Source: Escherichia phage EP75
Length of the DNA stretch: 64,000 nt
Sequence record: MG748547
Reading direction: 5' to 3' (one strand)
Position numbers and translations under genes: made by a program. Below the pieces are notes generated by a model, which made no database searches, was not told the DNA's origin, and saw only the letters and a list, made by a program, of their open reading frames with translations. Below, piece by piece: positions 54,636 to 54,724 of this stretch; within the stretch, counting starts at the first letter, position 1; each line of letters opens with the position of its first letter.

Positions 54636-54724
54636 GCGTGATGGAGATTAGCGCCCCCGACCTCCCCTTATATGTTGGTGTCGACTTGCCAACAGGGTGC
54701 TCTCTGATTCTGAGCTAATCACGC
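54636..54724 (-). ncRNA. 89-nt cloverleaf-like element I with non-canonical anticodon and T loops
   Basis: Acceptor GCGTGAT/ATCACGC and D arm TA-GCTC-AGAATCAGA-GAGC are canonical. The next arm is CCCT/AGGG plus GTTGG/CCAAC with a 10-nt loop. The last arm is GGAGG/TCTCC with a 13-nt loop. Confidence 0.35.

Follow-up and report, generated by a model that had tools for sequence, protein, structure and literature searches.

The genome of Escherichia phage EP75 (sequence record MG748547), of which a stretch of 64,000 nucleotides was analysed here (the window), carries on its minus strand, at positions 54636-54724, an 89-nt sequence that folds into a cloverleaf with unusual arms. This raises the question of whether it is a transfer RNA (tRNA) and, if not, what such a structure does just upstream of true tRNA genes. 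An initial annotation, made from the sequence alone, had left the choice between a strongly remodelled tRNA and a tRNA-shaped RNA with another function. We believe that the second option fits, and that the cloverleaf is very probably a selected RNA structure, derived from a tRNA and non-decoding; the same annotation had misfolded the T arm and missed the conserved block that encloses the cloverleaf.

Fold and covariation of the cloverleaf

A search with a 171-nt query found the element in 248 phage records, where it is mostly unannotated or overlapped by dubious small open reading frames (ORFs); it is present as one copy per genome in the genera Kuttervirus, Agtrevirus and Taipeivirus. The loci compared (Kuttervirus; EspM4VN, P46FS4, SKML-39 and Gloob of Agtrevirus; 0507-KN2-1, IME250, May, Croc, Trex and cp18 of Taipeivirus; and contigs from IMG/VR or metagenomes) yielded 16 distinct variants, which were parsed by hand into the refined fold of Table 1. 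Seven pairs had changes on both sides; they were seen in at least two lineages and in every helix (four of five) except the D stem, which did not vary, and single mismatches were few. At acceptor pair 2, the C-G of most phages is replaced by U-A in the Klebsiella Taipeivirus phages. In the anticodon arm, Klebsiella phages have U-A instead of C-G at outer pair 1 (with an A.A mismatch in cp18) and G-C and C-G instead of two U-A pairs at inner pairs 2 and 3, and outer pair 4 changes from U.G to C-G. Across genera, T-stem pair 2 changes from G-C to A-U, pair 3 appears as G.U, G-C or A-U, and pair 5 changes from G.U to C-G. The search for homologues and covariation in the Ackermannviridae that the initial annotation had proposed was therefore borne out, with the element kept in three genera and compensatory changes in both anticodon-arm stems and in the T stem. 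As judged from these sequences, four to seven pairing-preserving double changes in 25 pairs at about 77% identity is far above drift, for which a rough estimate gives about 0.4 expected. In the alignment made with R1, a covariance model of the cloverleaf itself, so that the alignment is fitted to the structure, 94.7% of the pair cells were standard and five pairs had both-sided changes; none of 500 column shuffles matched the covariation score, and sliding the partner columns by one to three positions brought pairing down to 37%-56%. The G.U pairs of the T stem and of the hairpin that follows on the 3' side would be A.C mismatches on the plus strand, and the structure therefore belongs to the minus strand, which carries the tRNA genes.

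The fold was established by several routes. The sequence and coordinates had been given exactly in the initial annotation, and its seven Watson-Crick acceptor pairs and D stem GCUC/GAGC were confirmed and kept in the Rfam tRNA alignment; its 10-nt loop on the GUUGG/CCAAC stem of the anticodon arm is likewise real. The 13-nt T loop, in contrast, was a misfold. An ordinary 5-bp T stem with a 6-nt loop was obtained from Rfam, from RNAalifold on two independent alignments and from the fold of the Klebsiella homologue. The T arm originally drawn (GGAGG/UCUCC), which is the one favoured by the window's single-sequence minimum-energy fold and which overlaps the outer anticodon stem by one G, was rejected, since it shows one double-change pair against three for GGGGG/UCUCC and the geometry is against it too. 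The same refined cloverleaf was recovered by RNAalifold on plain MAFFT alignments of the whole enclosing block and by the minimum-energy fold of the Klebsiella phage alone. The T stem measured 5 bp in the Rfam alignment and the hand parse, and 4 of those pairs appeared in the RNAalifold consensus of the block. The single-sequence folding energy of the cloverleaf was modest (z = -1.9). The tRNA covariance-model check suggested at the outset cut both ways: run on 111 nt alone, the Rfam tRNA model scored 20.3 bits against a threshold of 29 bits, which speaks against an ordinary tRNA, and its end-to-end alignment exposed the misfolded T arm. The EspM4VN homologue scored 22.8 bits with the same model. 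Rfam searches of 6 kb and 1.3 kb, at gathering thresholds or with E up to 10, gave no match at the cloverleaf, and ARAGORN did not call it in default, -ps80, -ps60, intron or mitochondrial modes.

With a canonical tRNA (RF00005) the cloverleaf shares the 7-bp acceptor, the U8-A9 that links it to the D arm, the D stem GCUC/GAGC with A14, the A26 that follows this stem, a 5-nt variable loop and a 5-bp T stem that abuts the acceptor without a spacer, which gives the geometry of a 12-bp coaxial minihelix. It differs in its 9-bp bulged arm with a 10-nt loop, a variable T loop of 6-7 nt, D-loop insertions of up to 41 nt and a C as discriminator. The Rfam alignment accommodates the anticodon region by inserting 28 nt between CCC and GGG, in place of the 11 nt expected, and the bulge on the 3' side of the arm has 4-6 nt across variants (AUAUAA here). 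The T loop reads CGCUAA, CUGGUAA, UAGGCAU or UGCCAG depending on the genus, and the cloverleaf has neither G18G19 nor T54-Psi55-C56 in a 7-nt T loop. An anticodon stem of 5 bp bearing a 7-nt loop, with U33 and a purine at 37, was also looked for in the cloverleaf and not found. An anticodon-like UU-GGC-AA context exists in some Kuttervirus variants only, and not in Klebsiella phages; the earlier observation that U33 context and T-loop consensus are missing was correct, as the former is not conserved across variants and the latter sequence is off consensus. The discriminator C lies at 54635, the 3' context is ...AUCACGC-C-GAC with no encoded CCA, and position -1 is A; an encoded CCA is present in the true tRNA-Met and tRNA-Asn of this phage. 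We consider the cloverleaf non-decoding because of the 9-bp bulged arm, the 10-nt loop, the D-loop insertions and the absence of a conserved U33/anticodon context, of G18G19 and of a T-loop consensus. On the other hand, a genuine tRNA-Arg of a Klebsiella phage scored 24.8 bits with R1, which fits a tRNA ancestry.

The apical loop of the remodelled arm behaves differently from the other loops. Its consensus is CRAGUCGACA, and AGUCGACA was identical in all 16 variants. Fixed or nearly so were also U8-A9, GCUCAGA, A26 and AGGUC, and the D loop, the T loop and the bulge drifted in sequence, against the constant apical loop. D-loop insertions of 17-41 nt were found in Klebsiella phages (loci L002-L004 and L021), one of them forming a hairpin CCGC-AAA-GCGG.

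R1 scored 78-107 bits in 12 loci. In the window and all loci it detected no second copy, the best other match in the window (14.5 bits) being at chance level, and it had no match in Dickeya phage LIMEstone1. When IMG/VR, JGI metagenomes and GTDB genomes were scanned by pattern, all matches were either from Ackermannviridae or at chance level, among them one Kuttervirus-like contig in the metagenome scan; a GTDB match in a metagenome-assembled genome of Thermodesulfovibrionales was dismissed, since R1 rejected it. No cloverleaf match was found in 5,426 complete E. coli genomes.

These data bear on three explanations that would make of the cloverleaf something other than a working part of a phage RNA. 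A decaying tRNA pseudogene, left without a function of its own in a tRNA "graveyard", would be in keeping with the sub-threshold tRNA-like pieces that ARAGORN -ps80 reports at 54404-54473, 53862-53938 and 54888-54977, with the presence or absence of the piece at 54400-54473 between genera, and with the mention of a degenerate tRNA in the CBA120 cluster (PMC3184105). It would not account for double compensatory substitutions in four of five helices with the great majority of pairs still formed, for an invariant apical loop, for a conservation at least equal to that of the adjacent protein gene, or for a single copy kept in 248 records and three genera. A plain pseudogene is thus unlikely, and we give this explanation very little weight. 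Selection on the DNA itself appears highly improbable, whether the sequence is imagined as the target of a homing endonuclease, as a palindrome bound by a protein or as a tract kept uniform by recombination. HNH genes do insert in the region, one of them beside a 98.9%-identical tract that points to recent gene conversion, and GTCGAC is also a palindrome at the DNA level. However, the G.U pairs and the strand-specific compensatory changes indicate a minus-strand RNA, variable paired positions are interleaved with invariant ones, unlike in a single conversion tract, and GTCGAC is not enriched (7 sites versus 11.7 expected). Finally, the cloverleaf might, as a tRNA mimic, sequester or mislead some factor that binds tRNAs: the CCA-adding enzyme, for instance, a modification enzyme, or a host anticodon nuclease or another defence aimed at tRNAs. 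Phage tRNA islands have been linked to counter-defence against tRNA-cleaving systems, and here tRNA geometry is kept while decoding features are lost. We nevertheless judge this quite unlikely: a decoy for an anticodon nuclease should keep a target-like 7-nt anticodon loop and not a 10-nt palindromic one, there is no conservation in the T and D loops, through which many enzymes recognise tRNAs, and the neighbouring ORFs encode no such factor (no Pfam match, PHROGs of unknown function).

Table 1. Positions of the cloverleaf, its parts and the conserved elements next to it in the EP75 window.
Feature	Position	Strand	Basis or remarks
Whole tRNA-shaped cloverleaf, 89 nt	54636-54724	-	Rfam tRNA model (model positions 1-71, 20.3 bits); own model R1
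Acceptor 5' strand GCGUGAU, 7 bp with AUCACGC at 54636-54642	54718-54724	-	
D arm: stem GCUC/GAGC (4 bp, invariant), 9-nt loop AGAAUCAGA without G18G19	54699-54715	-	
Remodelled anticodon arm: outer stem CCCU/GGGG (4 bp), inner stem GUUGG/CCAAC (5 bp)	54664-54697	-	
Apical loop, 10 nt, CAAGUCGACA; CGAGUCGACA in Klebsiella phages	54679-54688	-	Palindrome GUCGAC inside; 16 variants
Variable loop AGGUC, 5 nt	54659-54663	-	Rfam alignment and hand parse
T arm: stem GGGGG/UCUCC (5 bp, two G.U), 6-nt loop CGCUAA	54643-54658	-	Rfam, hand parse, RNAalifold
17-bp hairpin CAACAUUAUGAGUCUUC-AUA-GAGGGUUCAUAAUGUUG, 4 nt past the acceptor 3' end	54596-54632	-	-18 kcal/mol, z = -6.1
5' flank, nearly invariant: hairpin GGAG-AACGAAA-CUCC and motif CUCCCUGUUG	54725-54790	-	94-98% identity across genera, 50-nt windows
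Conserved structured non-coding block enclosing the cloverleaf, 502 nt	54474-54975	-	RNAalifold, three genera
Predicted long-range helix: CUCCCUGUUG with 3' strand CGACAGGACGAGG (CGACAGG..GAG)	54727-54736 with 54498-54510	-	RNAalifold only
Block B, unannotated tmRNA-like RNA	54089-54399	-	Tag frame 54180-54215; promoter-like site 54360-54387

The enclosing block and the working of the cloverleaf

The cloverleaf lies in the middle of a conserved block (Block A, 54474-55143) formed by a 48-aa ORF (54928-55074, a PHROG of unknown function) and about 500 nt of non-coding sequence, the structured 502 nt of which overlap the 3' end of that ORF. RNAalifold predicted 118 pairs in these 502 nt, 17 of them with compensatory changes, as in a hairpin that changes from CACUGC/GCAGUG to CAGGAU/GUCCUG, and a sub-domain at about 54790-54905 exists in three alternative versions. 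In 50-nt windows, the identity of the non-coding block to Agtrevirus EspM4VN was about 90%, versus about 67% for the adjacent 189-aa gene; the corresponding values for a Klebsiella phage were about 74% and 69%. The flanks surpass the cloverleaf itself in conservation: the 5' flank ...UGGUGUYAGUGGACGCAC...CCGUCGGAGAACGAAACUCCCUGUUG and the 3' flank CCGACAACAUUAUGAGUCUUC...AGAGGGUUCAUAAUGUUGCGUCAAAGGGCAACA are invariant across genera. On the 5' side a single-stranded leader ends in ...UGUUGUA, and on the 3' side a trailer C-GA precedes the hairpin. The existence of an abutting hairpin had been noticed in the initial annotation, which gave it 11 bp; it has 17 bp, with a 3-nt loop and three G.U pairs, and folds less stably on the plus strand. 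Its stem is constant but for a pairing-neutral AG-to-GA swap, and its loop carries an indel. RNAalifold further predicted a long-range helix, by which the cloverleaf and the 17-bp hairpin would be closed off together as a single multibranch domain. As its pairs are invariant or change from U-A to U.G, covariation is neutral on this helix, which is thus only a prediction.

The motif CUGUUG(G) recurs in the area. It is found just 5' of the cloverleaf (54727-54739), in the 5' strand of the anticodon arm of some Kuttervirus variants (54692-54697), downstream as CCUGUUGGUUG (54568-54575) and, as ACUGUUGGUUG, inside the D-loop insertion of 0507-KN2-1 and cp18. The complement CCRACAGG occurs once (54503-54510), which allows alternative pairings with CUGUUG(G) among which covariation does not discriminate. 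No complement of the apical loop was found elsewhere in the window beyond chance. Two other readings of the sequence were discarded. Protein coding was rejected since a 24-codon ORF that starts in the 3' hairpin is frame-shifted by an indel in Klebsiella phages, and the ORFs annotated over the cloverleaf in some records have inconsistent strands. A genome terminus or terminal repeat was rejected as well, since the "repeat_region" annotated in phage dinky is only a 21-nt inverted-repeat arm.

Our preferred explanation, which we put forward as tentative and short of probable, is that the tRNA-derived cloverleaf serves as a processing handle in a structured phage RNA of the tRNA island. According to this model, a structured non-coding RNA of about 0.5 kb would be transcribed from the minus strand of the island, with the cloverleaf as one of its domains. 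The acceptor/T-stem stack, U8-A9 and the D stem would have been kept as the parts recognised by host tRNA-processing enzymes; ribonuclease (RNase) P would cut at the 5' end, between 54725 and 54724, and an endonuclease between the discriminator C and the 17-bp hairpin. These cuts would punctuate a long transcript of non-coding RNA and tRNAs, separating the conserved upstream and downstream segments. After cleavage the cloverleaf would survive as a small RNA, or as a domain, that is stable, and its remodelled arm would present the loop CRAGUCGACA to a partner, be it a second copy (by GUCGAC kissing), a protein or another RNA. Transcription, cleavage by RNase P and a loop partner are all features that we infer. 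The context counts for this explanation: the cloverleaf lies upstream of tRNA-Met, tRNA-Asn and tRNA-Tyr, in a region with tRNA-like modules and stems of 17-26 bp. In other phage families the tag-encoding RNA described below lies directly between tRNA genes, which argues that such clusters co-process non-tRNA RNAs. The invariance of AGUCGACA, versus the drifting D and T loops, was taken to count for the apical loop as a functional site.

Several points weigh against a processing handle. The T and D loops form the tRNA elbow contacted by RNase P, and in the cloverleaf they are not conserved; A at position -1 and the lack of an encoded CCA count in the same direction. Independent events are few, since almost every compensatory change goes back to one of two splits, that of the Klebsiella Taipeivirus clade or that of the clade of EspM4VN and P46FS4, and part of the inter-genus identity could come from recombination, which is documented nearby. 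Moreover, processing alone leaves the invariant apical loop and the better-conserved flanks unexplained, and a domain closed by the predicted long-range helix would fit an integral architecture better than an excised RNA.

Such an integral architecture is the second explanation, which we regard as possible but doubtful. Here the cloverleaf would never be excised, and would be the four-way junction of an "ornate" phage RNA of about 500 nt, similar to ROOL and GOLLD, that oligomerises by kissing of its palindromic loop. The 118 predicted pairs with their 17 compensatory ones, the flanks that surpass the cloverleaf in conservation and the predicted helix around the cloverleaf and hairpin are in agreement with this idea, as are the swappable sub-domain versions and the D-loop insertions, which recall peripheral elements of large RNAs. 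The apical loop has a purine-A-(6-nt palindrome)-A layout, which we take to resemble that of a retroviral dimerisation-initiation loop. ROOL and GOLLD are large structured phage RNAs, often near tRNA islands and sometimes (GOLLD) with tRNAs in a linker, that assemble through kissing loops (PMC12286853). Block A is likewise phage-encoded and beside a tRNA island, and its 502 nt with 118 predicted pairs are suggestive but small in scale. In contrast to these RNAs, it is smaller (about 0.5 kb) and restricted to three Ackermannviridae genera; 17 covarying pairs in 500 nt are modest beside ROOL or GOLLD, whose Rfam models gave no match at gathering threshold or with E up to 10, no other Rfam family matching either. 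In addition, the enclosing helices are invariant, so that covariation is neutral on them, the 5' part of the block overlaps the predicted 48-aa ORF, and oligomerisation is pure inference.

A role as a processing handle and one as an integral domain of a larger RNA are compatible with each other, and they are the two explanations that fit best. In both of them the remodelled arm would be the functional end, and a six-base palindrome with unpaired flanking purines suits a kissing or dimeric partner. Non-decoding tRNA-like RNAs are already known, and what distinguishes this one, which is undescribed and absent from Rfam, is its arm and its context. Among them, mascRNA (from the 3' end of MALAT1), the C4 RNA precursor of phages P1 and P7, and the T4 stable RNAs species 1 and 2 are tRNA-like processing signals or non-tRNA substrates of RNase P. 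The cloverleaf is presumably comparable to them in being tRNA-shaped, non-decoding and part of a longer transcript whose RNA ends would be set by the tRNA-processing enzymes of the host, the T4 RNAs likewise lying in a phage tRNA cluster. It has, however, no sequence or model similarity to any of them, and differs in its invariant apical loop and highly conserved flanks; the Rfam mascRNA model gave a weak match at 53787-53851 and not at the cloverleaf. The bacterial Y RNA YrlA, which is found in some phages too, is another mimic of tRNA shape, with canonical D and T loops and its termini on the anticodon-stem side. By contrast, the termini of the cloverleaf are open at the acceptor and its D and T loops are degenerate; no Y-RNA-type match was found with Rfam.

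A neighbouring RNA with a tmRNA-like tag frame

At 240 nt downstream of the cloverleaf lies a second conserved element (Block B) that resembles transfer-messenger RNA (tmRNA). It has a conserved sigma-70-type promoter (TTGTCA or TTATCA, a spacer of 16-17 nt, and TATAGT), followed by a long covarying hairpin, a U-rich stretch, the sequence AAAUAA and a ten-codon frame (GCU AAU GAU ... GCG GCG UAA UAG). The peptide encoded in EP75 is ANDSEVLMAA; among relatives, where the variation is synonymous and conservative, it is ANDNTFLAVA, ANDDVVLMAA or ANDNAYLAVA. The tag of enterobacterial tmRNA is ANDENYALAA, which the predicted Block B tag closely resembles. The loop of the hairpin after the stop codon pairs with a downstream UCGG, and since this pairing covaries (CCGA/UCGG, CCAA/UUGG, CCAG/CUGG) it indicates a pseudoknot, as after the tag in tmRNA. 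The last hairpin has a variable stem and a conserved loop, GGU(G/A)UGAUUAAUAA (GGUGUGAUUAAUAA). A T arm, acceptor or CCA belonging to Block B was looked for and not found. ARAGORN in default mode called no tmRNA at this place, and the Rfam tmRNA models scored 14-32 bits, below their thresholds of 47-84. No mention of phage tag peptides was found in the literature.

The core of Block B was present in 440 phage records from at least five phage groups, which include T1-like siphoviruses (about 46-48 kb), N4-like Schitoviridae, and Felix-O1-like and Erwinia Ounavirinae. In the phage loci inspected it was unannotated and, in all but Sa179lw, located in or beside a tRNA cluster. It was also found in 137 of the 5,426 E. 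coli genomes, one inspected locus being between the Q antiterminator and holin genes of a lambdoid prophage. The tag RNA may matter more than the cloverleaf. It resembles the mRNA-like portion of a tmRNA with the tRNA-like portion missing, and phages could be using it to disturb ribosome rescue or to turn it to their own ends. Other phage families with the tag RNA lack the cloverleaf, which is therefore not its obligatory partner.

This distribution bears on the idea that the cloverleaf is the tRNA-like half of a split phage device for trans-translation, in which the tag RNA would be the template and its loop GGUGUGAU would pair with the 3' strand and discriminator of the cloverleaf, AUCAC(G/A)CC. 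The cloverleaf does resemble the tRNA-like domain of tmRNA in not decoding through an anticodon and in lying near a tmRNA-style tag frame, and the tag RNA has no tRNA-like domain found in cis. Both elements co-occur in all three genera, and the Block B loop GGUGUGAUUA equals the 5' strand plus U8A9 of the Klebsiella-type cloverleaf, so that an 8-bp strand exchange is possible. That 9-nt identity has, however, a chance expectation of roughly 10%, and it is possibly coincidental. The cloverleaf differs from the tmRNA domain in its invariant G3-C70, which is not the alanine-charging G3.U70, its discriminator C, its non-canonical T loop, the lack of an encoded CCA, a closed anticodon-type arm that tmRNA lacks, and its separation from a tag RNA with its own promoter. 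Furthermore, several other phage families and E. coli prophages have the tag RNA and no cloverleaf, phages without the cloverleaf have no complement to the tag RNA loop, and the sole conserved complementarity between Blocks A and B is one 7-mer at chance level. No Rfam tmRNA family overlapped 54636-54724 with E up to 10, and an unrestricted duplex search between cloverleaf and tag RNA gave uninformative output. Taken together, these data make a split device very improbable. The 7-mer in question is the loop AACGAAA (54743-54749) of the hairpin in the invariant 5' flank, complementary over up to 9 bp to a tandem UUUCGUU at the start of the tag RNA core (54261-54279) and the only complementarity of the two blocks conserved in four genomes.

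A bolder proposal, in our opinion unlikely, is that the cloverleaf is a working part of a new RNA machine, the gene-free 2 kb being an operon of structured RNAs. In it the cloverleaf would be either the core junction of a large RNA that self-assembles via GUCGAC or, through its acceptor 3' strand, the partner of the tag RNA. If the latter were true, these phages would make a bipartite tmRNA analogue that tags host or phage proteins with a peptide ending in LAVA or LMAA.

Genomic setting and other elements of the gene-free region

EP75 is a Kuttervirus (family Ackermannviridae), and the 2.2 kb around the cloverleaf matched 280 phage records, nearly all ViI/CBA120-like, with Salmonella, Escherichia, Klebsiella, Shigella, Enterobacter and Serratia as hosts. 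CBA120, Vi01 and their relatives are widely used as biocontrol and therapy phages. The genes around the cloverleaf are all on the minus strand, no long ORF exists at about 52740-55080, and ARAGORN and Rfam place tRNA-Met, tRNA-Asn and tRNA-Tyr just downstream on the same strand. Proteins encoded nearby have no Pfam domain and fall only in PHROGs of unknown function. A 2-kb stretch of a CBA120-type genome was described in 2011 as having no genes (PMC3184105); in later records it is annotated as empty or with spurious small ORFs, and no later explanation and no transcriptome or biochemical data on the RNAs of this stretch were found in the literature. At least part of this "gene-free" stretch consists of conserved structured RNAs under purifying selection, and the invariant loop of the cloverleaf offers a mutable target for asking what non-tRNA RNAs do in phage tRNA islands, the question of ROOL and GOLLD included.

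The region is modular across the genomes compared, and in some of them HNH endonuclease genes are inserted in it. In Klebsiella phage 0507-KN2-1 (locus L004, 2184-2744) an HNH gene lies inside the tag RNA gene, just upstream of the tag, at a position equivalent to about 54270 of the window. Its flanks differ in similarity to the window, with 98.9% identity on the 3' side (54089-54276) and 77% on the 5' side, a contrast that indicates homing with co-conversion and a recent gene conversion.

Further tRNA-like pieces are present on the minus strand. ARAGORN at the 80% threshold calls the one at 54400-54473 (67-70 nt) a tRNA-Ala, which is also its annotation in phage SeKF_64. Its features include U3.G70 and a canonical GGUUCGAUUCC T arm, and its sequence at the 3' end is ...CUCGCCA-ACA. 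Kuttervirus has this piece, Agtrevirus and most Taipeivirus do not, and Erwinia phage M7 has a similar short piece, with an acceptor and a T arm, that ends in CUCGCCA before the tag RNA. At 53775-53863, a 19-bp stem (CACAUCUUUGAGGACA.../...UGUCCUCAAAGAUGUG) surrounds a tRNA-like core with a canonical T arm, GCGGG-UUCGAGU-CCCGC, and with weak Rfam matches to mascRNA and tRNA-Sec; Klebsiella phages retain this stem, apart from one compensatory change, and have a different interior that lacks a T arm. Two degenerate pieces with GGUUCGAnUCC T arms (53990-54066 and 53862-53938), one of which ends in ...CUCCAAUC-CCA, fall within a stretch of about 210 nt that is absent in Klebsiella phages.

Long inverted repeats were found at 53595-53728, 53128-53221 and 54267-54349 (21 nt perfect, 26 nt at 88% and 22 nt at 86%, respectively), and the predicted stems are long enough for stalks processed by an RNase III-type enzyme. 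The 21-nt arm is the one annotated in phage dinky. Lastly, Klebsiella phage Croc_ER14 (locus L002, 2928-3142) carries a match to the Rfam sRNA family STnc100 (53.2 bits, threshold 47) at a place that corresponds to about 53205-53295 of the window, where flanking pieces only are present.

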